From the NCBI GenBank assembly GCA_964612455.1, contig CAZTCB010000005.1, positions 1 through 50,961 on the forward strand: DNA of 50,961 nt. The letters are read 5' to 3'. The notes under the pieces are model-generated. The model had not been told where the DNA came from. It worked only from the letters and a program-made list of their open reading frames with translations, and ran no database searches. This DNA is from an uncultured Subdoligranulum sp. (lineage in GTDB: Bacteria; Bacillota; Clostridia; Christensenellales; CAG-314). Below, piece after piece: positions 1-50,961 of the stretch. Each line of letters begins with the position of its first letter. Within the stretch, counting starts at the first letter, position 1. The translations under genes were made by a program, and so were the position numbers.

Positions 1-14
1 TTTTCGTACAAGAG

Positions 15-235
15 AAAAAAGTGTGACAGAATGTATATTCTGTCTACAAGTTTCTCTTAATTTTCACAATATAAAAAGCCGCGCTGAGTTTACTCTCAAC
101 ACGGCTTTTTTACTAAGGTTTATTAAATCATTCTACGCTTGGATTTGCCCAAAAACGAGAATTTTCCCGTTTCCCCCTTCACCAATACTACATATTAAAA
201 AATTCTCAATTCGGTGCCTTTTATGCCGATTTCAA
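15..235 (+). repeat. Copy A of a repeat of at least 200 bp (paralog of 21317-21540). It starts with an A-run plus palindromic core GACAGAAT-gtat-ATTCTGTC (25-44) and may be cut by the window edge.
   Basis: Aligned by eye to 21317-21540. Nearly identical over about the first 110 bp, then roughly 70-75% similar to about 235. The same core also occurs inverted at 21075-21094. Confidence 0.8.
73..111. terminator. Hairpin flanked by an A-run and a T-run (bidirectional intrinsic-terminator shape) inside repeat copy A
   Basis: Arms AGCCGCG (77-83) and CACGGCT (100-106), A5 upstream, T5 downstream. The copy at 21378-21407 keeps the stem through compensatory changes. Confidence 0.55.
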
Positions 236-344
236 AACATTAAAAACCTTGCTTTTTTTTGACGTATCTGCGGGCTTTTTACTTGGACTGCATTAATCTC
301 AAACATCGCATTGCGTCTACCCCAGTCATCTCGACCATTAATTT

Positions 345-917
345 TTATCTCTCAAAAACCACGAGATAACACCCCAGCACCTTTTCACAAGGGATACTTG
401 CGGCGTTTTGCGGCGTAAAGTTTCTCTTGGGATAAACGGTTTTTATCGGAAGGGATTGTACCGACAAGGTTTTTCCGAGGCTTTTGCCTCGTGCGTCATT
501 CGTCGAAAATTTCCACTCAAAAACGCAGTCGCAAAACTCTTTTTCCGCAGAAATCACCTCGGTTTTCCTCAAAAACTCGCCGTCGGAGACGAAAAAACAC
601 CCGTCATTATCTTTTTCCGCGGGACAACCTCCCCTAATGCCTACAGGACGGAAAGACACGTCGAGAAAATCGTTTTTAAATCTCACGCCGTCGGACGTAC
701 GTTCAAACGGAAAGTTTTTCCAAAACGCAATGTTCAGCCACCCTTTCTTTCCGTCTTTTTCAACCGCCACGTTAAACTCGAGATACCCCTCCTCATCATC
801 GGCAACCTCTGCGTTTATCCTAAAAACAGGTCGCAACGAAGAAAAATCCTCTGGCAAAATCGCGCGAATTTTGTCTTGTTCTACCTCATAAGCCATTACG
901 TATTGCTCTATTTTCAT
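345..917 (-). CDS. Hypothetical protein, 190 aa, no family recognised
   Basis: Longest ORF in the region with balanced, non-repetitive composition. The overlapping plus-strand ORFs are R/F/S-rich antisense artefacts. Confidence 0.6.
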   Translation of the reverse strand: MKIEQYVMAYEVEQDKIRAILPEDFSSLRPVFRINAEVADDEEGYLEFNVAVEKDGKKGWLNIAFWKNFPFERTSDGVRFKNDFLDVSFRPVGIRGGCPAEKDNDGCFFVSDGEFLRKTEVISAEKEFCDCVFEWKFSTNDARGKSLGKTLSVQSLPIKTVYPKRNFTPQNAASIPCEKVLGCYLVVFER

Positions 918-19012: not shown

Positions 19013-20461
19013 ATGGAAAACGAAAACAAACAAATCCGCACGAGGTTTGCCCCCAGCCCTACCGGATATTTACACATCGGCGGTTTGCGTACGGCTCTTT
19101 ACAGTTATTTGTACGCAAAAAAAACGGGCGGCAAATTTATACTGCGCATAGAGGACACCGACAGAGAGAGGCTCGTCGAGGACAGCGTCCAAAAAATAAT
19201 GGACACGATGAAAGAGGCGGGATTGCCCTACGACGAAGGTCCCGACGTTGGCGGCGATTACGGTCCTTATATACAAAGCGAAAGAAAGAACGAGTATCTT
19301 AAATACGCGCAAATTTTGGTTGAAAAAGGCGCGGCGTACTATTGCTTTTGCTCCAAAGAGAGGTTGGACAGCCTGCCCGACGTCAACGGCGCGCGCCATT
19401 ACGACAAACATTGTCTGCACCTTACTAAGGAAGAAGTAGACAGGCGCATTGCCGACGGCGAACCGTGGGTAATAAGGCAAAATATGCCGACCGAAGGGGT
19501 TTCGTCGTATCATGACGCGGTTTACGGCGAAATAGCAGTCAAAAACGAAGAACTCGAGGACAATATCCTCATCAAGTCGGACGGAATGCCTACTTACAAC
19601 TTTGCCAACGTAATAGACGACCACCTCATGGGTATCAACTGCGTCATGCGCGGTATGGAGTATCTGACCAGCACGCCAAAATACAATCTCCTGTACGACG
19701 CCTTCGGGTGGGAGCGCCCCATGTACGTTCATATGCCGCCTATCATGCGCGACGCTCAGCACAAGCTCAGTAAACGCGACGGTGCGGCGAGTTACGAGGA
19801 TTTGATAGAAAAAGGCTATCTCAAAGAGGCGATTATCAATTACATCGCTTTGCTCGGCTGGTCGCCTAAAAATAATATGGAAAAAATGTCCTTTGAGCAA
19901 TTGCAGGAGTTGTTTAGCCTCGAGGGCATCAACAAATCCCCCGCCATCTTTGACGAGGCAAAGTTAAAGTGGCTCAACGGATTGTATATCAAAGAAATGC
20001 CTTTTGAAAAATTTGTCGAAATCGCGATGCCGTATTTTGAAAAGAGCAAGGTTGCCGGCAAGTACGACTATAAAAAACTGTCGGCGTTGTTGCAGAGCAG
20101 GGTTGAGGCACTGACCGAAATCCCCGAAAAAGTAGATTTTTTGGAGGAGTACGGAGTATTTGACCAAAATCTCTACGTCAACAAAAAACAAAAGAGCGAT
20201 ATCGACTCCGCGAAAGAGGTTTTGCCAAAGGTGAGAGAGACCCTCGCGGCGACGGAAAACTGGGACAACGCCTCGGTGTATCAGGCACTCGTGGCACTTG
20301 CGGAGACGCTCGGCAAAAAGAACGCGACCGTGCTGTGGCCCACCCGTGTGGCGATTAGCGGCAGAGAAAGCACTCCGGGCGGGGCAACCGAGCTGGCAGA
20401 GTTGCTCGGTAAAGACGAGACTTTGCGCCGTCTGGACTTTGCGCTCGGATTGTTTGATTAA
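19013..20461 (+). CDS. gltX: Glutamate--tRNA ligase
   Basis: RFAPSPTGYLHIGG and KLSKRDG motifs. Confidence 0.96.
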   Translation: MENENKQIRTRFAPSPTGYLHIGGLRTALYSYLYAKKTGGKFILRIEDTDRERLVEDSVQKIMDTMKEAGLPYDEGPDVGGDYGPYIQSERKNEYLKYAQILVEKGAAYYCFCSKERLDSLPDVNGARHYDKHCLHLTKEEVDRRIADGEPWVIRQNMPTEGVSSYHDAVYGEIAVKNEELEDNILIKSDGMPTYNFANVIDDHLMGINCVMRGMEYLTSTPKYNLLYDAFGWERPMYVHMPPIMRDAQHKLSKRDGAASYEDLIEKGYLKEAIINYIALLGWSPKNNMEKMSFEQLQELFSLEGINKSPAIFDEAKLKWLNGLYIKEMPFEKFVEIAMPYFEKSKVAGKYDYKKLSALLQSRVEALTEIPEKVDFLEEYGVFDQNLYVNKKQKSDIDSAKEVLPKVRETLAATENWDNASVYQALVALAETLGKKNATVLWPTRVAISGRESTPGGATELAELLGKDETLRRLDFALGLFD

Positions 20462-20562: not shown

Positions 20563-20949
20563 TTAGTCATTACCCTCGCTGGAATTGTTTTGGATTACTG
20601 CAAGAACTTGCTCGCCATTGTCGGTTTTAAGCTCATGAGTGGCGGTTCCGCTATTTACGATCTTAGCTTCGCCGTTTTCGGAAATCTCTACCCAAATCTT
20701 GTCGCTATATTGTACGACGATTTTGCCTTTGTCATATACCACGTCGTCCGATGTGTCGGCGGTGGAGAGGTCGTTGGCGAGAGTTGCTTTGTAAGCATTG
20801 CTTACTTCTTGCAAAGCTTTGGATTCTTTTGCTTTGTCTACTACGCCGCTAAAAGTGGGGATGAGTACAGCCGCGAGGATAGCGATGACTGCGATGACTA
20901 TAACCAACTCGATGATGGTAAAGCCGCGTTTTTGGTTGTTTCTTTTCAT
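20563..20949 (-). CDS. Prepilin-type N-terminal cleavage/methylation domain protein (type IV pilin or pseudopilin-like), orphan
   Basis: MKRNNQKRG|FTIIELVIVIAVIAILAAVLIPTF is a class III signal peptide. SD AAGGAG upstream. The ORF-track start 21096 is an artefactual extension into the repeat. Confidence 0.88.
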   Translation of the reverse strand: MKRNNQKRGFTIIELVIVIAVIAILAAVLIPTFSGVVDKAKESKALQEVSNAYKATLANDLSTADTSDDVVYDKGKIVVQYSDKIWVEISENGEAKIVNSGTATHELKTDNGEQVLAVIQNNSSEGND

Positions 20950-21069
20950 TTTTCTTTTCTCCTTTTTGAAAAATATTATTATTGTTTTCGTCACCTTTTT
21001 CGTGACGTAAAATCCGTTGTTTTCAGCCTGTTTCCGTCGGTATTTCCGTCGAAAAACCGAGAGAATTTT

Positions 21070-21103
21070 TTGTAGACAGAATACACATTCTGTCACCTTT
21101 TTT
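21070..21103. repeat. Left arm of a perfect 34-bp inverted repeat (core GACAGAAT-acac-ATTCTGTC at 21075-21094)
   Basis: TTGTAGACAGAATACACATTCTGTCACCTTTTTT is the exact reverse complement of 21317-21350. Confidence 0.95.
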
Positions 21104-21119
21104 TATTCTTATCGGAGAA

Positions 21120-21148
21120 ATTATAAGCCTATTTTACGAGATAGTCAA
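21120..21148 (-). promoter_or_regulatory. Near-consensus sigma-A promoter inside the repeat-flanked segment, pointing at the pilin-like gene
   Basis: Minus strand: TTGACT (21148-21143), 17-nt spacer, TATAAT (21125-21120). Confidence 0.75.
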
Positions 21149-21316
21149 GCGGACGAGTACAAAAAAATCAAAAATAATCGAAATTTGCCTTGTTTCCGTT
21201 TTGTTTTGTCGTTTTTCCGCCTTTTTTTAAATCTTTTTCCCGTAAAAATGCCGTTGTCTTTGGCGGTATTGTCCCTTTTTATCGGTTTTTCGTTTTCCGC
21301 ACCTTTTTACTGCCCG

Positions 21317-21350
21317 AAAAAAGGTGACAGAATGTGTATTCTGTCTACAA
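21317..21350. repeat. Right arm of the perfect 34-bp inverted repeat
   Basis: AAAAAAGGTGACAGAATGTGTATTCTGTCTACAA. Also the start of repeat copy C (21317-21540), which parallels 15-235. Confidence 0.95.
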
Positions 21351-21373
21351 GTTTCTCTTAATTTTCACAATAT

Positions 21374-21412
21374 AAAAAGCCACGCCGAGTTTAACCTCAA
21401 CGTGGCTTTTTT
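21374..21412. terminator. Bidirectional hairpin terminator inside repeat copy C
   Basis: AGCCACG (21378-21384) pairs with CGTGGCT (21401-21407). Inner GAG/CTC pairs. A5 upstream, T6 downstream. Confidence 0.65.
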
Positions 21413-21582
21413 ACTAAGGTTTATTAAATTTTTGTTTACCGAAATCCCGCCAAAAATCGAGATTTTTCCGTTTTCTCTTTCACCAAAGTTACGTATGAGA
21501 AAAAATATCCTTTCGCGAGGTTTTTGCGGGTGACGAAAGCGATTTTTACCGTGTTTTTCCGTCGTGTTTAAATTTTGCTCGT

Positions 21583-22595: not shown

Positions 22596-23480
22596 ATGCC
22601 GACGGAAAACATTGAAAAAGCGAAAACGTTGTTGAAAGAAACGCAGGCGCTTGACGACAAATATCTCGAGTTGTCAAGGCTGTCGGCTTATCCCGAAATC
22701 ATGGCGGACGCAACGTATATGCGTTTTTTAGCGAAGGAGCAAACGGCGCTAAAACCGCTACACGGGTGGCGACAAACTTTGGCGACGTTGGTAGAGGACG
22801 CCGAATTTTGCCTCTCGGAATCGAGTAAAGGCGGCAAGGAGCGCAGGTTTTTTGAAGAGGAGTTGGCTCAAATCGAAAAAAAAGCGGCACCCGTGTGCGC
22901 CGAAATAAAAAAATTTCTTGCCGACGGCGGCGAAATCGACCTGTACGGGTGCACGATAGAAATGTCGGGGGACGCGCGCGGGATAGTTGCGCTCAAGGAG
23001 GAGTTTTTTAAAACGGCGGAGGGCGTTCGTTGTCCGTTGATAGTCGTCAAAAATAGCATGACGGCGGGGGACGGGGGCTACGGATTGTTTAAGGAGCAGG
23101 GCGGACGGCACAAGTTTGTCTATTCCGTCGACGGCAGGCAGGCGTGCGGCGAGGTGCTGGTCGTCGTTTTACCCGATATCGTCGCCAAAAAGGCAGAGTG
23201 GAGCGAAAAAGACTTGCGCATCGATATTTATCATTCGTCGGGCGCGGGCGGTCAAAACGTCAACAAGGTGGCGAGTGCGGTGAGGATAACGCACTTGCCT
23301 ACGGGGATAGTCGTGAGTTGTCAGGAGGAGCGTTCGCAATTGTTTAATAAAGAACGCGCCTTTGCCGCGCTTGAAAAGAAACTTGCCGAAAAATACGGCG
23401 AAGAAGTCGCCGAAAAAAAAGACGAAATCCGCAAGCGGCAAAAAAACTCGGCGGGTTTCGTAGCAACGCACAAAATTTAA
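22596..23480 (+). CDS. Class-I release-factor paralog (PCRF-like N-terminus plus GGQ domain) lacking the codon-recognition elements
   Basis: GGQ at aa 218-220 in SSGAGGQNVNKVASAVRITHLPTGIVVSCQEERSQ. No PxT or SPF tripeptide and no GRIHTS-type segment. The protein ends about 75 aa after GGQ. Confidence 0.8.
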   Translation: MPTENIEKAKTLLKETQALDDKYLELSRLSAYPEIMADATYMRFLAKEQTALKPLHGWRQTLATLVEDAEFCLSESSKGGKERRFFEEELAQIEKKAAPVCAEIKKFLADGGEIDLYGCTIEMSGDARGIVALKEEFFKTAEGVRCPLIVVKNSMTAGDGGYGLFKEQGGRHKFVYSVDGRQACGEVLVVVLPDIVAKKAEWSEKDLRIDIYHSSGAGGQNVNKVASAVRITHLPTGIVVSCQEERSQLFNKERAFAALEKKLAEKYGEEVAEKKDEIRKRQKNSAGFVATHKI

Positions 23481-33908: not shown

Positions 33909-36776
33909 TCATTGTTCTTTTATCCACACCACGGGTTTGTTGTCGGAGTCGTAGTGCCAGTAGTTGCCGCTCGTGCTCGGCTCAGTTGCCGAGTAAAAAT
34001 ATACCGAGACGCCGAGATATTCTTCCGCGCTTGCCCATGTATAGGACGTGGGAGTAAGACCGGATTGATATATTTTGAAAGTATCCGTAGACTTACCGAG
34101 GTAATAAATAACAAATCCCTGCGGCAAGCCGCCAAAGCTGTTGGTGTAAAAAGTGGTCATGCCTTGAGGTAAAACGACGTACTTTAGTGACGAGCAGCCG
34201 TTAAACGCCAAGTATTGGATGCCTTTAAGCTGTGCAATGCCGTTGCTGAATTTTTTTATTTCCACGCTCTCGAGCGAAGTGCAGTTTCCGAAAGCGTTTG
34301 TCGCTACAGAGGTTGCGCCGTCGATGACGACCGTCTTGAGGTTTACGCACCCGTAAAACGCGTTTTCATGTATCAAGTTGATATTCTCTCCGCAATAAAA
34401 CTCAGTCAGTCCGATACACCCGTAAAACGCCGATTTGCCTATCAAGACGACGTAGTTGAGTTTGGCGGAAACGACGAGTTTTTCGCAACCGTAAAACGCG
34501 TTTGAGCCTATCTCTTTCAGTTTTGACGGGAAATTGACGACCATGTTTTTACATCCGGAGAAAGTACCGCTGCCTATGATGGTCAGGTTGTCGTTGAGGA
34601 TTACTTCCGTAATTGACTCGCATCCTTTAAAAACGCCAGATTCTCCCAACGTCGCGTTTTTTATCTCGATTTTGCCCGTCAATGCCGCGCAGTTCTCAAA
34701 GGCATACGATCCGAGTTCCGTCAGTTTGTCGGATAAAGTGACGGTGGTCAGCGAGGTACAGTTGCGAAAAGCTTTTTCGCCTATCTTCGTAATATTGGCG
34801 AGGGATATTTCAATCAGTGCCGTGCAGCCGGTAAAGGCAGAAACACCGATTTCTTTTACCGAGTCGGGTAGGGTGACTTTTGTCAGTGCCGTGCAGCCCT
34901 CAAAGGTAGACTCGCCGAGCCCTGTCAGTTTGTCGGATAGGGTGATTGTTGTCAGTGCCGTACAACCTTTAAAGGCATAATCACCGATTTCTTTCACCGA
35001 GTCGGGTAGGGTGACTTTTGTCAGTGCCGTGCAGTTTGCAAACGCATAATTGCCTATGGATGCCGAGCCGTCAAGTAAAGTCAGTTCCGTCAGGCCACTG
35101 CATGAGTAGAAAGCGGATTTGCCGATTTCGGTAATGACGGCAGAGATAGTAAACGCAGCTTTCACGCTGGCAAACGCGTAGTCGCCTACGGTGTCGAGTC
35201 GTTTCGTCAGGATGGTAAGGCTCGTTAAAGATGTGGGAAAACAAGAGCTGCCTATTTCTTTCACCGATGCGGGGATGGTCAACTCGGTACATTGTATAGA
35301 GTAAAAAGCATTCGAGCCGATTTTTGTCAGTCCCGACGGTAAATCTATTTCCGTCAGGGCGGTTCCGTAAAACGCGTAATCTCGTATTTCTTCGACGGTA
35401 TCGGGTAACGTCACGGAAGTCAATCCGCTATTACGAAAGAGATAATCGGCGATTACTTTGACGTTGCCCAAAAAGGTAACGCTTTTTAGCCCTTTTTGTT
35501 TTTCAAAGGCTCCGCCGGCGATTACTTTGACGTTTGCCGGCAAAGTAAGATGGGTTTCGTCGGCGAGAGTGCCTACTTGTTTGTAAAGAACACTGCCGAT
35601 AAAGAGCTGTCCGCCTTCGCCTATCGCGGCTTCCTGTTTGGTCAACCATGGAGTAGATGCAAACACCATGTAACCGACGTGGCGGAGGTTGTCGCCGTTG
35701 TTGCCGATAGTGAGAGAGGTTATCGAAGTATCTCTAAAGGCGTAATTACCGATACTTTCTACGGTATCGGGGATGGTCAACTCGGTACATTGTACAGAGT
35801 AAAACGCAGAGTCGTCTATTTCCTTTAATCCGACGGGCAACTCAAGTTGTTTAACGTTGCTACAATAACTGAATGCGCCGTTACCGACATGCTCTACTCC
35901 GTCGGGGAGATTGATTTCGGTAAGAGCACACAGCGAAAAAGCGCAAATACCGATTTTTTTGAGTCCGAGAGGTAGTCTTACGTCCGTGATGTCGTTGAGC
36001 GTCAATTTTTGACCGCCGACTATAAGAGTCGGTTGGGTACCGAAAGCCCAGTCGCCGATTTCGGTGACAGGTTTACCGAGATAGCTGTCGGGGATGACTA
36101 TGCGCCCCGATTTCGGTCCCTTTGTGGCAACGTACCCGTCGCCGTCGTCGTTGAGAGCGAAGATGATAGACGACGCTTTTTCGGTGGAGATTGTTTTGGA
36201 CTCGGTCACCGTTTCGCCGGTTCCGTCGTTGTAAACCAACGTGCAAGTGTACGAGGAGGAAGGCGACAAACGGTCGGATAAATCGATTGACGTGTCGGTA
36301 GTCGTCACCTCATAGGTGTCTTTGCCGACGGTGCCGTCTTGTTTGTTAAAAAAGTCGCCTTCGACGGAAAGGGTGTACTGCGTGCCTTTTTTATAATTGT
36401 CCCAAGACAGGACGTAACCTGTCAGTTTGATTGTCGAAACAGGGGCAACGGGTGCGGTGTAAACCACCGTGGCGGAATACTCGCTGTCGAGATAATCGGT
36501 GCGATTGCCTACCGCTTTGACCTTGATGCTCTGACCGTCTTTAAGTTGAATTTGCAGTTTAGAAGTGGACGTTTCGTTGGTGAGGTTTATTTTGTACAGA
36601 TATCTGACGGCGTTGGGTATCGCTTCCCAGCTTGCGACGCCGTCGTCGTCGACGGTGACGACGGGGGTATCGAGCTGAACGGGGTCTTTCGGCTTTTCTT
36701 CTTCGGTACAGCCAAACAGACAAAACGCCGTAACCAATATCAAAAGAATGAGAAAATAAACTTTTTTATTTTTCAT
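33909..36776 (-). CDS. BspA-type leucine-rich-repeat surface lipoprotein (955 aa)
   Basis: Lipobox LFGC. N-terminal Ig/FN3-like region, then many units of about 23 aa of the form IP/LPDSV..IG..AF..C..LT. Confidence 0.88.
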   Translation of the reverse strand: MKNKKVYFLILLILVTAFCLFGCTEEEKPKDPVQLDTPVVTVDDDGVASWEAIPNAVRYLYKINLTNETSTSKLQIQLKDGQSIKVKAVGNRTDYLDSEYSATVVYTAPVAPVSTIKLTGYVLSWDNYKKGTQYTLSVEGDFFNKQDGTVGKDTYEVTTTDTSIDLSDRLSPSSSYTCTLVYNDGTGETVTESKTISTEKASSIIFALNDDGDGYVATKGPKSGRIVIPDSYLGKPVTEIGDWAFGTQPTLIVGGQKLTLNDITDVRLPLGLKKIGICAFSLCALTEINLPDGVEHVGNGAFSYCSNVKQLELPVGLKEIDDSAFYSVQCTELTIPDTVESIGNYAFRDTSITSLTIGNNGDNLRHVGYMVFASTPWLTKQEAAIGEGGQLFIGSVLYKQVGTLADETHLTLPANVKVIAGGAFEKQKGLKSVTFLGNVKVIADYLFRNSGLTSVTLPDTVEEIRDYAFYGTALTEIDLPSGLTKIGSNAFYSIQCTELTIPASVKEIGSSCFPTSLTSLTILTKRLDTVGDYAFASVKAAFTISAVITEIGKSAFYSCSGLTELTLLDGSASIGNYAFANCTALTKVTLPDSVKEIGDYAFKGCTALTTITLSDKLTGLGESTFEGCTALTKVTLPDSVKEIGVSAFTGCTALIEISLANITKIGEKAFRNCTSLTTVTLSDKLTELGSYAFENCAALTGKIEIKNATLGESGVFKGCESITEVILNDNLTIIGSGTFSGCKNMVVNFPSKLKEIGSNAFYGCEKLVVSAKLNYVVLIGKSAFYGCIGLTEFYCGENINLIHENAFYGCVNLKTVVIDGATSVATNAFGNCTSLESVEIKKFSNGIAQLKGIQYLAFNGCSSLKYVVLPQGMTTFYTNSFGGLPQGFVIYYLGKSTDTFKIYQSGLTPTSYTWASAEEYLGVSVYFYSATEPSTSGNYWHYDSDNKPVVWIKEQ

Positions 36777-38213: not shown

Positions 38214-40586
38214 TTATCCGACGGTTTCATCGGTGTGAGTATTGTGGTATATTATGACGGCTTTGGCAATGACGTCGTTGTTTTTGCCGATTTCTATGAG
38301 GTCAAAGTCTTCTTGCGTACCGTAGTATTGTATTTGCGTGAGTTTGTTGCAGTTGATAAAAGCCGCGTCGCCTATATGAGTCAAGGATTTTGACAAATTT
38401 ATCGTCGTCAGGTTGTAGCAAGAAGAAAAAGCCGCGTAGCCTATGGTGGTCACGTTGATGCCGAGGGTGACGGACGTCAGGTTGTAGCAAGCGGAAAAAG
38501 CCGAGTCGCCTATCGTCGTCACGTTGTCGCCCATAGTGACGGACGTCAGACTCAAGCCGCGGAAAAAGGCGTTTGTGCCTATCGTCGTCACGGCGTCGGG
38601 GACGGTAAACGTCGCGGCGGTTTTGCCGACGGAGTATTGGACGAGAGTGGTCATGTCCTTGGTATAGAGATTGCCGTCGACGGATTTGTAATAAGGATTG
38701 TCGTCGGAGACCAATATCGACGACAGGGAGTCGCAATGAACGAACACGTCCGTGCCTATGCTGTTTACGCCGCTGCCGATGTCGATTAAAAACAGAGAGG
38801 AGCAGTAGGCAAAAGTTTCGTCGTTGATTGTTTTTACTCCGTCGCCCACGGTGACGACGACGAGAGAGTCGCAGCCGAAAAACATATTGGCGCCGAGAGA
38901 GTTTATTCCGTTGCCTATCGACATCGCAGTCAGTGAGGTGCAACCGTAAAAAGCGCCTTGGTTGACGGCGGTTACGTTGTCGGGAATAACGATTCTTTCC
39001 AGCGAGGTGCAGTTTAAGAAAGCAAAAGAACCGATAGTTTCGATATTGTTGCCGATAGTTACGCTTTTTAAGGACGTGCATCCTTTGAGCAAACCGATTG
39101 ACATGACGGAGAGTCCGTCACCCGTCGCTATCGAGGTCAGCGACGAGCAGTAAGCAAAGGCGGAACGCCCCAACTCGGTCACGGTATCGGGGACGACAAA
39201 GTCAATCAATCGGGAGCAAAAAGCAAACGCTCCGACGTGTATTTCGGTCACGGTATCGGGAAAGGTTATTTTTTCAAGCGCGGAGCCCGCAAAAGCGGTT
39301 GCCATTATTGATTTTACCCCGTTTAGGACGACAAACTCGGTATCGGTTTTGCCGATGGCATACTGATACATGGCGGTGACGTCTTTGTCGTACAGATTGC
39401 CGTTGACAGAGGTGTATTTCGGGTTTTCTTCGCTGACGATAATATTTTTAAGCGATATGCACTCGCCAAAGAGCGGACTGACCGTTGCGGTCGATTCCGT
39501 CATTTCGTTGCTTGATTCAAGCGTTTTGCCGCTATACAATGTTTCGAGGTTGTTTACTCCGCTACCTATGGTCACGGTCGTCAAGGACGAGCAATAATAA
39601 AAAAGGTCAAAGCCCAACGACGTTATATTGTCGGGAATGGTTATTTGTTTAAGGGAGGAGCAACCGTAAAAGAGTTCGCGAGGCAAATCCGTCAAACCCG
39701 ACGGAATATCGACGCTTGTCAACAGGTAGCAGTTGTAAAAAGCGCCTTCGCCGATATCGGTTATGCTGTCGGGTAGGGTGATTTTTTTGAGCGACGAGCA
39801 GTTTAAAAACGCGTTATCGCCTATTTGTTCGACGCCGTCGTACATGACGATTTCTGTCAGGTTGAAACATTCTCTGAATGCATAGTCGGCAATATGCGTT
39901 ACGGTGTCGGGGACTTCAAACGAGGTGGCGGTTTTTCCCATGGCGTAGCGTATGAGCTCGGTTGCGTCCTTGTCATAGAGGTTGCCGTCTATGGTTTGGT
40001 ACTTGGTGTTGTGTTCGCCGACGTAGATACCCGTCAACGCGCGACAGCCCGAAAAACGGTCGGAAATAGTGACCACGCTGTCGGGTATGGTGATGGTGCG
40101 CATGTATTTTGCGCTGCTGAAAGCGCCCTTTTTGATTGCCGTGACGGGAGTGCCGTTGTACGTATCGGGAATGACGACGTCTACTTCTTCTTCGGTGTAG
40201 TAGACGCAATCGATGACGGTGTAGCGTTTGAGATCGCTCCGCCCGTCGTAAACCAACTCGTACGCTCCGCTCCACTTGGCGTAAACGAAAGTGTCCGACG
40301 ATATCGGCGTATACGTGAGAGTGGTCGAGGTAAACGGAGCCGTCCACTCGCCTTCGTCGTAATACCAGCCGTCAAAAACGTAGTTTTCTTTTGTCGGGGC
40401 TTCGGGCAGGGGGACTATGCTGTTGCCGTCGGTTGTGACGATTGCGCGGGTTTTGCCGTCAACCACGAAAGAAATCGTATAATTTTGTTGTTTGTCGGTG
40501 CTGCATGCGGAAAAAGCCAACAGCGCAAAAACAAACGCAAAAGTCGTTAAGGCGAGCAAAATGCCGCGACGGGATAAGTTTTTCAT
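38214..40586 (-). CDS. BspA-type leucine-rich-repeat surface lipoprotein with an N-terminal Listeria-Bacteroides-type repeat
   Basis: Start MKNLSRR after AAGGAGG. Lipobox FSAC. YVFDGWYYDEGEW motif, then LRR units. Confidence 0.88.
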   Translation of the reverse strand: MKNLSRRGILLALTTFAFVFALLAFSACSTDKQQNYTISFVVDGKTRAIVTTDGNSIVPLPEAPTKENYVFDGWYYDEGEWTAPFTSTTLTYTPISSDTFVYAKWSGAYELVYDGRSDLKRYTVIDCVYYTEEEVDVVIPDTYNGTPVTAIKKGAFSSAKYMRTITIPDSVVTISDRFSGCRALTGIYVGEHNTKYQTIDGNLYDKDATELIRYAMGKTATSFEVPDTVTHIADYAFRECFNLTEIVMYDGVEQIGDNAFLNCSSLKKITLPDSITDIGEGAFYNCYLLTSVDIPSGLTDLPRELFYGCSSLKQITIPDNITSLGFDLFYYCSSLTTVTIGSGVNNLETLYSGKTLESSNEMTESTATVSPLFGECISLKNIIVSEENPKYTSVNGNLYDKDVTAMYQYAIGKTDTEFVVLNGVKSIMATAFAGSALEKITFPDTVTEIHVGAFAFCSRLIDFVVPDTVTELGRSAFAYCSSLTSIATGDGLSVMSIGLLKGCTSLKSVTIGNNIETIGSFAFLNCTSLERIVIPDNVTAVNQGAFYGCTSLTAMSIGNGINSLGANMFFGCDSLVVVTVGDGVKTINDETFAYCSSLFLIDIGSGVNSIGTDVFVHCDSLSSILVSDDNPYYKSVDGNLYTKDMTTLVQYSVGKTAATFTVPDAVTTIGTNAFFRGLSLTSVTMGDNVTTIGDSAFSACYNLTSVTLGINVTTIGYAAFSSCYNLTTINLSKSLTHIGDAAFINCNKLTQIQYYGTQEDFDLIEIGKNNDVIAKAVIIYHNTHTDETVG

Positions 40587-40756
40587 GTCAATGCCTCCTT
40601 GTTTTTGGTACGCGTACACGTGAAATTTGTATTGATTTTGATAAAGTGATTATATTATACACAATAGAAGGCGGATTAGTCAATACCGAAACAAAAAAAA
40701 TTTTTATCGATTTAACTCAGGTGAAAACGACGTTATGATTTACGTCTGCGGAGCAA

Positions 40757-48677: not shown

Positions 48678-50961
48678 TTAACCTTTTTTCCAGTAGTCCG
48701 TGTATTTAAGCAAGTACGTCGCGTTTTGGGCATTGTCGGTCAGCGTGAGTTTGTAGCCGCTCGTGGCGGTGGAATAACTTGCCACAAACCAACCGTCGGG
48801 GCTTTTAAACTCGGCGCTCGTCAATGCGGAGCAATAAGCGAACGCGTTTTTGCCTATTGACGTTACCGCCGTGCCTATCGTCACCGTCGTGAGACTCGAG
48901 CAACTGTAGAAGGCGTAGTCGCCGATACTCGTTACTTTGTCCGGTATGACTATTTCTTTTAGCGACGAACAACTGTTGAAGGCAGAACCGCCTATCGTCG
49001 TTACGTTTGCGCCTATCGTTACTTCGGCGAGTTCGCTACAACCGGAAAACGCTTTTTCGCCTATCGTCTTGACGCCGCTGCCTATCGTTACTTTGGTAAT
49101 CGCCGTACGCCTGTAAAACGCGTTGTCTTCTATCGCGGTGACTTCGTCGGGGATGGTTACTGCTCCTTTGAGTGCCGTAGGGGCGTGTACTATCTTGGTT
49201 TTTGCCTTGTTGTACAATACTCCGTCTACGCTGCAAAAAGCGGTATTGTCGGCGTGTACCGATACGCTTTCGAGTGCGACGCAATCGTCTATGGCACCGC
49301 TGCCTATGGTTTTTACGGTAGCGGAAACGGTTACCGTCTTTAATCCGAGACATTGCGAAAACAGTCGCATGGGGACGTTAACGACGCCGTCGCCTATCGT
49401 CGCGGCGGTGAGGTTGGAACAACCGGAAAACGCGGGAGCGGAGTAAGAACCGGCGGTGCTTACCGATACCGCGCACCACTCGACGGAAACTAAATTTTTG
49501 CAATAACCGAAAGTTTCTTCTCCGACCTTGGTTACGCCGGAACCGACTTTTACGCTCGTAATGCTCGCGCAGCTAAAGAAAGCGTACGCGCTTATTTCCG
49601 TAACGTCGTCGGGAATGACGAGGTTGTTGACCAGCGTGCCGCCGACGTACAAATTGCCGCTGTCGTACAAAGGATTTGCGTAACGGTCGGCAAATTTAAC
49701 GGCACACCATTGAGAGATGCTGCCGACGTATATCGATACGCCGCAACCTCCGCCTATTGCGTTACTGTTCAGCTTTGCCAAGCCGGAACCTATCACTACC
49801 TTTTTGAGGACGTCGCAACCGGCAAACGCGCCTTCTCCTATTTCCGTCACGCTGTCGGGAATAGTTATTTCCTGCATGGCGGTAGTACTTCCGTAAAAAG
49901 CGTAGGCAGGCAAACTCGTTACGTTTTCGCCGATGTTTATCGTCGTCAATGCCGTACACACTCTAAACGCGGGCTTGGTTTTTGTCCCCGCATAGGTGCA
50001 AGCCGTTGCGTTCCAATTGACGGTTGTCAACGCGGAGCAGCGGATAAATGCAGAATCAGGCAGATAAACGACGTTGACGCCGACGTTGACGGTAGTGAGG
50101 GCGGTGAGCTCGTCCATTACGGTGTCGGAAATCGAAGATTTGCAGTTGATTGCGTTCCATGTGATGGTCGTCAACGAATTTGACCATGCAAACGGATTGT
50201 GCATGATATCCGTGACGCCTTCGGGAATAACGACTTCCGTAATGCCGACACTTGCGAAAGCCTGCGTGGCAATAGTCTTGACGCCTTTACCTATCGTCAG
50301 AGTCTTTGCCGACGAGCAGCCGGAAAACGCTTCCATCTCTATCGTCTCGACGTTGTCGGGAATGATTATTTCCGTCAACGCCGTACCGGCAAACGCGCCG
50401 CGGGTGATAGTCGTTAAACCTTTGGGGATAGTAATCGCCGTCAGTTTAGTGCAATCGTAAAAGGCGTATTGTTTTATCTCCGTGATTGCATCGTGGAGAT
50501 TGACGGTGGTCAGGTTTTTACATTCCCAAAAAGCCCTTTCTCCGATACTCGTTACGCTGTCGGGGAGTTTTACGCTCTTGATGTTTTCGTGGGATTTAAA
50601 GCCGCTGTCCGCTATTGTCGTTACCGGCAGATTTTGCCAGGTAGACGGTATCACGACGTCGGAGTCAGAGCAAGAACCTATGGAAACGGAATAATACTTG
50701 CCGTCGTCGCTCAGAGTAAAGACAAGCCCTTGAGAGTAGAGTTTGTCGCCGCAACGACTGCATTTGCCGTTTACGTAGTCGTGACCGCCTTTGACGGTGA
50801 GGTCGCTTAACTCTGCCTTGTTTTGGTCAAAGTATTTGCCGCAGACAGAGCAGGTGTAGTGACCTTTCGTACCGTCGCTTTCGCAGGTTGCGTCGACGGC
50901 GTTTATCCATTCGCCGTAAACGTGACCGCCTTTGACGGTGAGGTCGCTTAACTCTGTTTTG
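48678..50961 (-). CDS. BspA-type leucine-rich-repeat protein, 5'-partial (the frame stays open to the window end)
   Basis: Hand translation upstream of the ORF-track GTG at 50654 gives ...ELSDLTVKGGHVYGEW...CSVCGKYF...ELSDLTVKGGHDYVNGKCSRCG...VVIPSTWQ with no stop codon. LRR units follow downstream. Confidence 0.88.
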   Translation of the reverse strand, partial: KTELSDLTVKGGHVYGEWINAVDATCESDGTKGHYTCSVCGKYFDQNKAELSDLTVKGGHDYVNGKCSRCGDKLYSQGLVFTLSDDGKYYSVSIGSCSDSDVVIPSTWQNLPVTTIADSGFKSHENIKSVKLPDSVTSIGERAFWECKNLTTVNLHDAITEIKQYAFYDCTKLTAITIPKGLTTITRGAFAGTALTEIIIPDNVETIEMEAFSGCSSAKTLTIGKGVKTIATQAFASVGITEVVIPEGVTDIMHNPFAWSNSLTTITWNAINCKSSISDTVMDELTALTTVNVGVNVVYLPDSAFIRCSALTTVNWNATACTYAGTKTKPAFRVCTALTTINIGENVTSLPAYAFYGSTTAMQEITIPDSVTEIGEGAFAGCDVLKKVVIGSGLAKLNSNAIGGGCGVSIYVGSISQWCAVKFADRYANPLYDSGNLYVGGTLVNNLVIPDDVTEISAYAFFSCASITSVKVGSGVTKVGEETFGYCKNLVSVEWCAVSVSTAGSYSAPAFSGCSNLTAATIGDGVVNVPMRLFSQCLGLKTVTVSATVKTIGSGAIDDCVALESVSVHADNTAFCSVDGVLYNKAKTKIVHAPTALKGAVTIPDEVTAIEDNAFYRRTAITKVTIGSGVKTIGEKAFSGCSELAEVTIGANVTTIGGSAFNSCSSLKEIVIPDKVTSIGDYAFYSCSSLTTVTIGTAVTSIGKNAFAYCSALTSAEFKSPDGWFVASYSTATSGYKLTLTDNAQNATYLLKYTDYWKKG

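Follow-up and report, generated by a model that had tools for sequence, protein, structure and literature searches.

A 281-bp unit made of two inverted-repeat arms and of the 213-nt segment enclosed between them is considered, on balance, as a probable invertible promoter switch of an orphan type IV pilin-like gene, and as a probable member of a dispersed family of switches served by a trans-acting invertase. It lies in the 50,961-nt stretch of DNA analysed here (the window), which corresponds to a whole contig, and its features are listed in Table 1. An invertible promoter had been proposed at this position in the initial annotation: the sequence features of such an element were all found, and the junction predicted for the flipped state is present in a contig of another assembly (L002), i.e. 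a natural copy in the flipped arrangement exists, but at a paralogous locus. The most likely reading of the unit is that of an ordinary switch turned ON and OFF by inversion, and the inversion of promoters of surface structures is a textbook mechanism rather than a new principle.

Table 1. Coordinates of the features of the proposed promoter switch and of the third copy of its arm and flank in the window.
Feature	Position	Strand	Remarks
Orphan type IV pilin-like CDS, 128 aa	20563..20949	-	ATG 20949, Pfam N_methyl
5' leader, from left arm to start codon	20950..21069	-	RBS GGAG 20962-20959, small hairpins
Left arm, proposed recombination site	21070..21103	none	34/34 match
Left-arm dyad core	21075-21094		GACAGAAT-ACAC-ATTCTGTC, then ACC-T6 on the inner side
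Proposed invertible segment, 213 nt	21104..21316	none	No credible gene; rich in A/T-tracts upstream of the promoter
Sigma-70-type promoter, TTGACT-17-TATAAT	21120..21148	-	11/12 consensus match
Terminator-like hairpin and T-run within the segment	21247..21270	+	10 pairs, 3 GC pairs; pattern match only
Right arm	21317..21350	none	Dyad core 21326-21345
Conserved linker GTTTCTCTTAATTTTCACAATAT, from right arm to terminator	21351..21373	+	23/23 in window-start copy, 21/23 in L002
Strong bidirectional intrinsic terminator	21374..21411	none	Proposed OFF-side stop for the flipped promoter
Rest of conserved outer flank module	21412..21503	none	73-95% identity by sub-region, common to three loci
Third copy: arm, linker, terminator and flank	14..202	none	82% over 190 nt

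The perfect 34-bp inverted repeats first reported around 213 bp were recovered with exact coordinates, all 34 nucleotides of one arm being complementary to those of the other. This pair is the longest inverted repeat of the 51-kb contig, which contains no other perfect one separated by a spacer, and its repeat score (34) is to be compared with a maximum of 14 obtained in mononucleotide shuffles of ~75 related upstream regions. As expected for an invertible promoter, the repeats surround a short non-coding segment. The latter had been described as free of ORFs: it does contain no credible gene, but mechanical ORFs cross it (e.g. 21017-21361 on the plus strand, with a TTG start). The spacings of the A-tracts within the segment are mostly of 9-12 nt. 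The minus-strand promoter of the initial annotation was confirmed as the sole promoter-like site between positions 20300 and 21800, as was its direction, through the left arm and into the pilin-like CDS; the segment carries a promoter that would drive the adjacent gene in one orientation only, as judged by its match to the consensus. Sites that match at least 11 of the 12 consensus positions are 25-fold enriched in the whole window (10 observed vs 0.4 expected), and each of the other 9 lies either 5' of an ORF or between divergently oriented ORFs. Considering the usual spacing after the -10 box, pilin transcription is predicted to start near position 21113. The terminator-like hairpin located within the segment would, once flipped, oppose leftward read-through towards the pilin gene.

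The pilin-like gene is located between gltX and rsmA. Its product was recognised by the Pfam N_methyl profile (E=3.6e-8, 33.1 bits vs a cut-off of 21.2), and its N-terminus, MKRNNQKRG followed by FTIIELVIVIAVIAILAAVLIP, corresponds to a class III signal peptide with cleavage between KRG and FTIIE. It displays the characters of type IV pilins and pseudopilins, namely the Gly of the leader, Phe at position +1 and Glu at position +5, followed by the hydrophobic alpha-1 helix. In solved structures of type IV pilins, the family profile aligned with the N-terminal helix (residues 1-50 of the PilA and geopilin chains). The search for homologues retrieved 3521 proteins, and in their sources some of these go by the name of PilA or of type II secretion system protein. 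This gene is the sole ORF of the window with a prepilin motif, and none of the pilus assembly genes searched for in the 51 kb (prepilin peptidase, PilB-type ATPase, PilC platform, minor pilins) was found; the assembly machinery may be encoded elsewhere in the genome. Comparison of the leader and flank with Rfam gave nothing above the gathering score, and a Magnesium-II match (27.5 bits vs 40), on the strand antisense to the leader, was treated as chance.

The proposed mechanism is as follows. The assembled orientation would be the ON state: the promoter would fire leftwards, and its transcript would cover the left arm and the 120-nt leader before reaching the pilin-like CDS. A recombinase encoded elsewhere in the genome would bind the GACAGAAT-NNNN-ATTCTGTC dyad present in each arm, and strand exchange between the two inverted sites would flip the segment. 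In the OFF state, the flipped promoter would read rightwards through the right arm and the 23-nt linker into the terminator, yielding a transcript of ~100 nt only. That the segment flips in living populations is an inference, as are the transcription start, the invertase involved with its class, and any consequence of the switch for the phenotype of a pilus or pseudopilus.

The dyad of each arm is composed of two 8-bp half-sites on both sides of an asymmetric 4-nt centre (ACAC or GTGT), 20 bp in total, which is the form that would be expected of the site of a recombinase dimer. The assignment of the arms to lox/dif-type core sites with a 6-8-6 layout, made in the initial annotation, fits poorly, because the dyad is 8-4-8 and the 6-8-6 layout is merely one possible parse of it. 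Core sites of the lox/dif/FRT type were defined as two inverted elements of 11-13 bp around an asymmetric spacer of 6-8 bp, and the binding arms obtained with the 6-8-6 parse are far shorter than this definition. A 9-2-9 parse, of the serine-invertase type, fits the dyad equally well. The 8-4-8 dyad being shorter than classical lox/dif/FRT sites is a point against the inversion reading. As initially stated, no recombinase gene is present in the window: a Pfam scan of 40 window ORFs revealed no domain of the Phage_integrase, Resolvase, Recombinase or DEDD/transposase type, which also counts against the inversion reading. A threshold of E <= 0.5 was applied to 10 of these ORFs, among them six that the default cut-off had left without a match.

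Further copies of the arm, which had only been raised as a possibility, do exist, and the multi-copy status of the element had been missed: a third arm is present in the contig, and arms identical on 34 nt were found in two other assemblies (L002 and L020), i.e. the family comprises at least 2 copies in this contig, plus L002 and L020. In L020, a 77%-identical pilin-like paralogue is preceded by the same arm and 5'UTR; the leaders of the two genes share 83% identity over 132 aligned columns, and the first ~20 nt beside the arm look identical (by eye). L002 belongs to the MAG of an uncultured Ruminococcus and represents a different (paralogous) locus. Its positions 3-172 are 97.6% identical to the 213-nt segment, in reverse complement relative to the arm, linker and terminator. 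The junction in L002, CTCCGATAAGAATA joined to AAAAAAGGTG, is exactly that predicted for recombination inside the arms (promoter end, arm, linker, terminator), and the promoter is identical, intact and points into the terminator. The predicted flipped junction is thus observed at a paralogous locus and in another assembly, the far side of the switch lying past the end of the contig.

Conservation across copies is highest in the arms (34/34 in L002 and L020, 33 matches over 35 aligned columns in the window-start arm, vs 73-95% in the distal flank). In the window-start arm (positions 15-49), the dyad centre is GTAT and not GTGT. For scans of sequence collections, the arm was used as GTAGACAGAATNNNNATTCTGTCAC: one match was obtained among the GTDB representative genomes (L002), and none in the metagenome contig collection or in IMG/VR, and the comparative depth is therefore very thin. 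Exact-protein look-ups (pilin, rsmA, gltX and a 190-aa ORF) returned nothing, or fragmentary Logan contigs, of which L001 stops in the flank module and L003 in the conserved N-terminus of the pilin; Logan contigs of run SRR10277277 carry rsmA and gltX identical to those of the window. A point in favour of the switch is that contigs are interrupted at it or within it in 4 assemblies (the window start, L001, L002 and L020). At an assembly k-mer of <=55, the L002 junction might have been attached by mistake to the flank of another paralogous locus; a junction of this kind would still have to be present in the reads.

On the outer side of the right arm, the hairpin and T-run indicated in the initial annotation correspond to the bidirectional terminator of Table 1 (-17.7 kcal/mol on the plus strand, -26.2 kcal/mol on the minus strand), which also serves as the terminator downstream of rsmA. 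The outer flank containing this terminator is conserved at three loci, one of them being the third copy, in which ~150 nt of outer flank (linker, terminator) extend beyond the arm. In this window-start copy, the linker is better conserved than the terminator, of which one stem pair is changed from A-T to G-C (by eye), apparently in a compensating manner. The contig starts 13-14 nt inside the window-start switch; the segment end beside its arm gave an alignment score of 4 with the promoter end vs 2 with the far end, on 13 nt only. Two plus-strand ORFs that start in an arm (21324-21533 and 23-262) were rejected as coding: they are devoid of an RBS and contain the terminator, and where the two copies differ, the amino acid is altered in most cases.

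A multi-copy family with conserved outer flanks strengthens the idea of an invertase acting in trans, and it also opens the way to another explanation, that of a static multi-copy promoter cassette of the MITE or Correia type, which we regard as unlikely. Such a cassette would be non-autonomous, non-flipping and constitutive, with 34-bp terminal inverted repeats (TIRs) and an outward promoter, and would insert in either orientation at a preferred repeated target, here the terminator-bearing flank module. Correia elements of Neisseria are short and multi-copy, and have terminal inverted repeats; they may provide outward promoters, and hairpins or terminators in the transcripts. The present element is likewise a short multi-copy unit with perfect terminal inverted repeats of 34 nt and an outward promoter near one end, and near-identical arms and segment recur between loci and between samples. 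As the two arms are exact reverse complements of each other, an insertion in the opposite orientation would yield exactly the L002 arrangement, and repetition alone would explain the contig breaks at the element. In Correia elements, however, a TA duplication is found on both sides and the contexts of insertion are unrelated, whereas no target-site duplication of 2-11 nt was found at the arm ends here, and both outer flanks are conserved between copies. These flanks abut the arm at the same nucleotide (3/3 loci for the flank module, 2/2 for the leader), so that strict site-specific insertion would be needed, and not ordinary transposition. Furthermore, no empty target was seen in the very little DNA that was searchable, no similarity to the element was found in plasmid and phage collections, and the parallel locus type described below (L014) adjoins a tyrosine recombinase and not a transposase.

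It could also be that the arms are chiefly RNA/DNA hairpins, i.e. weak inward terminators that keep read-through from gltX or rsmA away from the pilin promoter; in the left arm, a 5'-terminal stem-loop might then stabilise the pilin mRNA, and the symmetry would be a by-product of the duplication of an insulator. Both arms do match a weak terminator pattern (hairpin and T-run) reading inward to the segment, with -9.4 kcal/mol for the left arm and -10.6 kcal/mol for the right arm (minus strand, inward) and z-scores near -3.5, and the hairpin of the left arm would come soon after the start of the predicted pilin mRNA. This explanation is nevertheless held as improbable. The stem has 8 bp with 3 GC pairs only, when a stable GC-rich hairpin directly followed by a U-run is expected of a Rho-independent terminator, and is far weaker than the nearby terminators (-17.7 to -26.2 kcal/mol); the 34 identical nt extend beyond the hairpin by 5 nt and 9 nt, which termination does not need; and the reverse-complemented segment in L002 is left unexplained. 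Such a role is compatible with inversion, as the arms could do both. A last explanation, very improbable, is that the 20-bp dyads are paired operators for a looping dimeric or tetrameric repressor in the manner of Lac, Gal or Deo, the gene being regulated and not phase-variable (one operator at ~+20 to +40 from the start, the other at ~-220, with 251 bp looped), for which the near-perfect palindrome of each arm, typical of operator sites, the centre-to-centre distance of 251 bp (near 24 helical turns, from coordinates) and the A-tracts of the segment, suggestive of bendable DNA, would speak, but 34/34 nt are mirrored when operators need neither identity outside the dyad nor an inverted asymmetric centre, the flipped segment of L002 and the conserved OFF-side terminator module are unexplained, and no regulator gene is adjacent (the nearest one, of the TetR family, being 9 kb away).

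The invertible switch that we favour was compared with known systems. It resembles fimS of E. coli, on which the FimB/FimE tyrosine recombinases act, in being a short intergenic segment between inverted repeats that carries the promoter of a surface-filament subunit, ON or OFF by orientation. The repeats of fimS are of 9 bp, its recombinase genes are adjacent and its target is a chaperone-usher fimbrial subunit, whereas here the repeats are of 34 bp around a 213-bp segment, the 51 kb contain no recombinase, the element occurs in several copies and the gene is of type IV pilin-like nature. The principle of the type 1 fimbrial switch is summarised in PMC5386303, and the published lengths of fimS are of ~296-314 bp (296 bp excluding repeats; PMC5903667).

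The RecV-dependent switches of C. difficile (cwpV, flgB, Cdi1-7) are also small segments located upstream of surface-structure genes, and C. difficile is of the class Clostridia, like the present host, judging from the MAG name of L002 and from the annotations given to the homologues by their sources. The flgB 'flagellar switch' has a 154-bp segment and 21-bp repeats, several dispersed switches are served by a tyrosine recombinase whose gene lies elsewhere, and the repeats of Cdi2 are identical to those of Cdi5 (PMC5386303, PMC5903667). The flagellar switch was first recognised by reverse-complement comparison between genomes (PMC5386303), a precedent for the comparison made here with L002. 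According to PMC5386303 and PMC7446863, the cwpV and flgB switches contain no promoter and act after transcription initiation, via terminator formation or Rho; by contrast, the promoter is here inside the segment, as in fimS, and the repeats are of unrelated sequence. That master invertases can act in trans is established (PMC5903667), and Clostridia contain invertons that share repeat sequences (PMC11892184).

Dispersed promoter-bearing segments with a shared repeat sequence are also found in the Mpi system, which differs by relying on a serine recombinase of Bacteroidota and by its 10-bp repeat-core consensus, and only 3-4 copies are known here. To our knowledge, a conserved OFF-side terminator module and arms with a hairpin and T-run have not been described for Mpi systems. 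As cited in PMC5386303 and PMC5903667, Mpi of Bacteroides fragilis is one trans-acting master invertase for many dispersed promoter segments of capsular polysaccharide loci, which share a consensus inside their inverted repeats and give combinatorial surface variation. By analogy with RecV or Mpi, the near-identical arms of the present copies would fit a single 'master' invertase acting in trans. DNA inversion is tied to the expression of type IV pilin itself in the Piv system of Moraxella. There, a ~2-kb segment with pilin coding sequence inverts, which swaps the pilin C-termini, and Piv, a DEDD/IS110-type invertase, is encoded beside this segment; here, in contrast, only the promoter would flip and the coding sequence would be untouched. 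Site-specific inversion governs type IV pilin expression in Moraxella bovis and M. lacunata (Marrs et al. 1988, cited in PMC5903667).

A repeat-flanked promoter is not general to the pilin family: among ~75 metagenome loci, only L041 and L043 exceeded the shuffle background, and neither was retained. The arms of L041 lie on a perfect 16-nt palindrome and align almost equally well as direct repeats, and those of L043 correspond to a REP-like hairpin present three times. The layout is absent from most of the ~75 homologous pilin loci of other organisms, a point against the inversion reading, and would therefore be a lineage-specific arrangement. Five close paralogues (P0011, P0004, P0013, P0015 and P0018) were also discarded as instances, because their upstream architecture differs and consists of tandem pilin genes, an operon, or a promoter with tetranucleotide repeats behind it; the arm of the window is upstream of none of them. 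The homologues P0008 and P0019 sit in pilin operons. Three loci (L014, L016 and L017) present the following order: tyrosine recombinase gene, minus-strand terminator, arm, 132-nt segment, arm and pilin operon. The 132-nt segment carries an extended -10 promoter (11/12) aimed at the OFF-side terminator, and the pilin of the operon is 68% identical to that of the window, the repeats being of unrelated sequence. These loci are an independent parallel to the switch of the window, which speaks for inversion; no flipped copy of the L014-type switch was found among the loci compared.

A broader and rather doubtful proposal is that one trans invertase toggles several near-identical switches located before different orphan pilin-like paralogues, which would allow a cell-by-cell choice of subunit in gut Ruminococcus; the arms would serve as inward insulator terminators, and the linker and terminator as a 'landing pad' giving a defined OFF RNA of ~100 nt that might be regulatory. 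We know of no description of such insulating arms, or of a landing pad with a defined OFF RNA, for classical invertons. As the switches break short-read assemblies (window start, L001, L002, L020), pilin paralogues and their regulation are systematically under-represented in MAGs. In a genome-wide survey, the invertible sites of Clostridia were mostly found near signalling and chemotaxis functions (PMC5903667), and pilin-like genes would, if the switch is real, add a new class of targets beside these. In ruminococci, proteins of the type IV pilin family are major extracellular proteins that act as cellulose or surface adhesins, and spontaneous variants of R. flavefaciens differed in pilin abundance, for a cause that was not known (PMC3672088). 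Orphan pilin-like genes placed behind promoters that are flipped by a shared invertase would, if true, provide a testable mechanism for cell-to-cell and strain-to-strain variation of adhesion in fibre-degrading gut Firmicutes.

A promoter inversion switch is considered the most likely, and a reasonably probable, explanation of the 281-bp element lying 5' of the pilin-like CDS (20563-20949, minus strand). As described in the initial annotation, perfect 34-bp inverted repeats enclose a 213-bp segment: the two arms are complementary at 34/34 positions with 213 nt between them, and a scan of the full 50,961-nt window detected no second perfect spaced inverted repeat and no other as long. The arm score of 34 compares with at most 14 in mononucleotide shuffles (upstream regions of ~75 homologous genes). 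Each arm contains a 20-bp dyad, GACAGAAT-ACAC-ATTCTGTC; since its half-sites are 8 bp and its asymmetric centre 4 nt long, the 6-8-6 site layout proposed initially is a possible parse, the natural one being 8-4-8. An ACC and a T6 run adjoin every dyad on the inner side, so that the arms also match a hairpin and T-run terminator pattern directed into the segment.

Coordinates and composition of the candidate switch, of its window-start copy and of the layout 5' of the operon encoding the pilin homologue P0008 (P0008 positions are those of its own loci)
Feature	Position	Strand	Description
Left arm	21070-21103		TTGTAGACAGAATACACATTCTGTCACCTTTTTT
Right arm	21317-21350		
Promoter-like site	21148..21120	minus	TTGACT-17-TATAAT; 11/12; sole such site in segment
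Strong bidirectional terminator, right of right arm	21374-21411	both	-17.7 kcal/mol (plus), -26.2 kcal/mol (minus)
Window-start copy, arm			33 matches / 35 aligned columns
Window-start copy, linker (23 nt)			23/23
Window-start copy, terminator			33/39
Window-start copy, past terminator			~73%
P0008 operon 5' region, 1st			tyrosine recombinase gene (Phage_integrase)
P0008 operon 5' region, 2nd	84..67	minus	terminator
P0008 operon 5' region, 3rd	97-119		repeat arm
P0008 operon 5' region, 4th		minus	132-nt segment with TTGACA-17-TGnTATACT; 11/12
P0008 operon 5' region, 5th	252-274		second arm, embedded in 16-nt palindrome

The near-consensus minus-strand promoter reported in the segment was recovered, directed at the ATG at 20949, from which it is separated by the left arm and a leader of 120 nt (GGAG at 20962-20959), and the terminator hairpin was found where it had been placed. 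Promoter matches this good number 10 in the window (both strands), against 0.4 in Markov simulations; by comparison with the ORF list, the remaining nine all lie 5' of an ORF or within a divergent intergenic region, dnaA, rsmA, two BspA-type genes and the RF-like gene being among those preceded by one. Because such matches are rare and the other nine are so placed, the segment's site was taken, on sequence grounds, as a real promoter. On the plus strand of the leader (20962-21068), antisense to the pilin transcript, a sub-threshold match to the Rfam Magnesium-II aptamer (27.5 bits, gathering score 40, E=0.005) is probably due to chance.

The putatively controlled gene is a 128-aa ORF with a prepilin motif (KRG|FTIIE, Pfam N_methyl). 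It is fairly described as an orphan type IV pilin-like gene, no other prepilin-type ORF being present in the window. It lies in the gltX-rsmA interval of the chromosomal origin region, which also carries dnaA, dnaN, yidC, jag, mnmE, mnmG, rsmG and parAB. More than 3,500 homologues were retrieved, mostly from gut-type metagenomes and some of them named PilA or 'type II secretion system protein' in their sources; the family profile matches solved type IV pilins in the N-terminal alpha-1 helix only. Most of the 120 best homologues are known only on contigs of ~0.5-2 kb, consistent with fragmentation of assemblies by repeated or variable flanking DNA. Of the features of the invertible-promoter class, repeats and promoter are present in the window and a recombinase is not, in agreement with the initial annotation: no recombinase domain was detected across the 40 ORFs scanned (10 of them at E <= 0.5, including six without a match at the default threshold).

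A scan with GTAGACAGAATNNNNATTCTGTCAC of one genome per GTDB species returned a single match, in L002 (CAZKXB010000062.1, a contig from the MAG of an uncultured Ruminococcus sp.), and none came from the metagenome or viral collections. The L002 locus differs from that of the window, continuing into a large AAA-type-ATPase-like ORF and a 1617-aa helicase-like ORF (by eye). Its positions 3-172 correspond to window 21104-21272 reverse-complemented (97.6% identity), 173-206 are identical to the right arm, and 207-360 match the window's outer flank in direct orientation (86.5% identity). The junction, CTCCGATAAGAATA|AAAAAAGGTG, is the window's left junction reverse-complemented and joined to the right arm, exactly as arm-arm recombination would be predicted to produce. 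The promoter of L002 is intact (position 128, TTGACT-17-TATAAT) and aimed through arm and linker at the terminator; the predicted OFF arrangement is present, at a different locus of another assembly. If L002 was assembled at k <=55, the junction could have been given the flank of another paralogue, given that the flanks first differ 22 nt past the 34-nt arm; even so, the flipped junction must exist in the reads. L020 (Logan SRR25400521), which encodes the closest homologue (P0002, 77% identity), opens precisely with the inner end of a 34-nt arm identical to that of the window; behind this arm comes a leader with 83% identity to the window leader. Both outer contexts thus recur, leader and pilin gene on one side and linker and terminator on the other, in every case abutting the arm at the same nucleotide, and the segment between them is seen in both relative orientations (window versus L002, at different loci).

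An alternative is a static MITE-like promoter cassette: each arm being the exact reverse complement of the other, a 281-bp unit inserted the other way round would be indistinguishable from an inverted one, as in L002. Such a cassette is considered unlikely, as target duplication is absent, both outer flanks are conserved to the same nucleotide in all copies, and no resemblance was found in plasmids or phages. That the arms act only as hairpin insulators or 5' stabilisers is quite improbable: their match to the terminator pattern is real, but the stems are weak (-9.4 and -10.6 kcal/mol, versus true terminators close by), the identity extends past the hairpin, and L002 is left unexplained. Dyads serving as paired palindromic operators of a looping repressor, with centres 251 bp apart (~24 helical turns by arithmetic), would account neither for the mirrored identity outside the dyad nor for the flipped L002 copy, and are very improbable.

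Under promoter inversion, transcription in the assembled (ON) orientation would start near 21113, judging by the normal distance of a start site from its -10 box, and the transcript would cover left arm, leader and pilin-like gene. A recombinase encoded elsewhere would bind the dyads, synapse the inverted sites and exchange strands within the arms, looping across only ~250 bp being perhaps aided by the A-tract-rich segment (A-tract spacings mostly 9-12 nt). Once flipped (OFF), the promoter would read rightwards through arm and linker into the terminator. Protection of the switch and of the OFF-state gene against read-through may come from the inward hairpin and T-run of each arm and from a further hairpin inside the segment (21247-21270); a function of the OFF transcript itself is speculation.

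The multi-copy state of the element had been overlooked: in a self-comparison, 21316-21503 (right arm and ~150 nt outside it) recurred at 14-202 with 82% identity. In this copy one stem pair of the terminator is changed from A-T to G-C (by eye) and the dyad centre is GTAT, versus GTGT. The window being a complete contig, its start falls 13-14 nt inside this third arm, and the partner arm and any gene controlled are off the contig; the flank module (1-202) lies downstream of an unannotated 190-aa ORF (345-917, minus strand). Of two Logan contigs, L001 (identical rsmA) terminates within the flank module and L003 (identical gltX) within the pilin gene, in the conserved part coding for the N-terminus. 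Evidently the source organism carries several members of the family, and assemblies break at them. At the opposite contig end, past the last BspA-type gene, a 42-nt direct repeat (50774-50815 / 50915-50956, 95% identical) was observed, and the contig may end in repetitive DNA there too. Near-identical arms versus 73-95% distal flank identity would fit one shared invertase, with C. difficile RecV and B. fragilis Mpi as precedents (PMC5386303, PMC5903667).

A comparable layout precedes the pilin operon containing P0008 (68% identical; several gut metagenomes, L014-L019). This candidate inverton (L014 1-520; also L015, L016 and L017) has repeats unrelated to those of the window, with CGCCTAATA half-sites; in 3/3 spanning assemblies its extended -10 promoter faces the terminator and not the operon, the end of a fourth contig coincides exactly with the right arm, and no flipped copy was found among the loci examined. 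Both loci have arms that contain dyads, a promoter inside the segment and a terminator on the OFF side, and the L014-type locus also has a neighbouring recombinase gene; the design thus seems to recur in the pilin family, though it is absent from most homologous loci. At two orphan homologues from other gut metagenomes (L108 150-220, L022 590-670), a consensus promoter is directly followed by a tetranucleotide tract ((AAGC) ~10x and (GACA)n, respectively), which may be a different ON/OFF route, perhaps slipped-strand phase variation; two further contigs with the L022 protein both break at an identical upstream position. Upstream of a homologous pilin gene from another metagenome (L043), the apparent inverted repeat arises because a REP-like palindrome, CCTCCCTCCCGGAGGGAGG, is present three times (27-51, 201-225, 347-371).

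Elsewhere in the window, three genes (33909-36776, 38214-40619, 48678-50654) encode large surface proteins of the BspA leucine-rich-repeat type and contain internal DNA repeats; two of them lie just downstream of 11-12/12 consensus promoters (40683, 38152). A palindromic box, (A)TGTTTCACGTGAAAC(AT), occurs in three copies (1129-1197 and 2330-2351) within an ORF-poor, repeat-rich stretch of ~1.7 kb (~1080-2750). Genes for a MarR-family protein and a MATE transporter come directly after this stretch, and the boxes may form a set of operators or be related to the origin. The RF-1-domain protein at 22596-23480 (294-aa ORF; PCRF-domain match weak, below cut-off) could be a prfB-type product, with the 5' part of its gene connected by the programmed +1 frameshift usual for such genes, or else a shortened paralogue of a release factor.

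The proposed switch is not a new principle. It is fimS-type in working principle, because the promoter lies inside the invertible segment, and resembles the RecV and Mpi systems in genomic organisation (a master invertase), Cdi2 and Cdi5 of RecV having identical repeats. For Clostridia, groups of invertons with common repeats and ties to tyrosine recombinases are on record (median of 3 invertons per genome; PMC11892184), and genes near invertible sites were mostly signalling and chemotaxis genes in one genome-wide survey (PMC5903667). No report of an inverton 5' of a type IV pilin gene in Firmicutes was found in the literature searched, and the element is of moderate interest for ruminococcal adhesion biology (PMC3672088).
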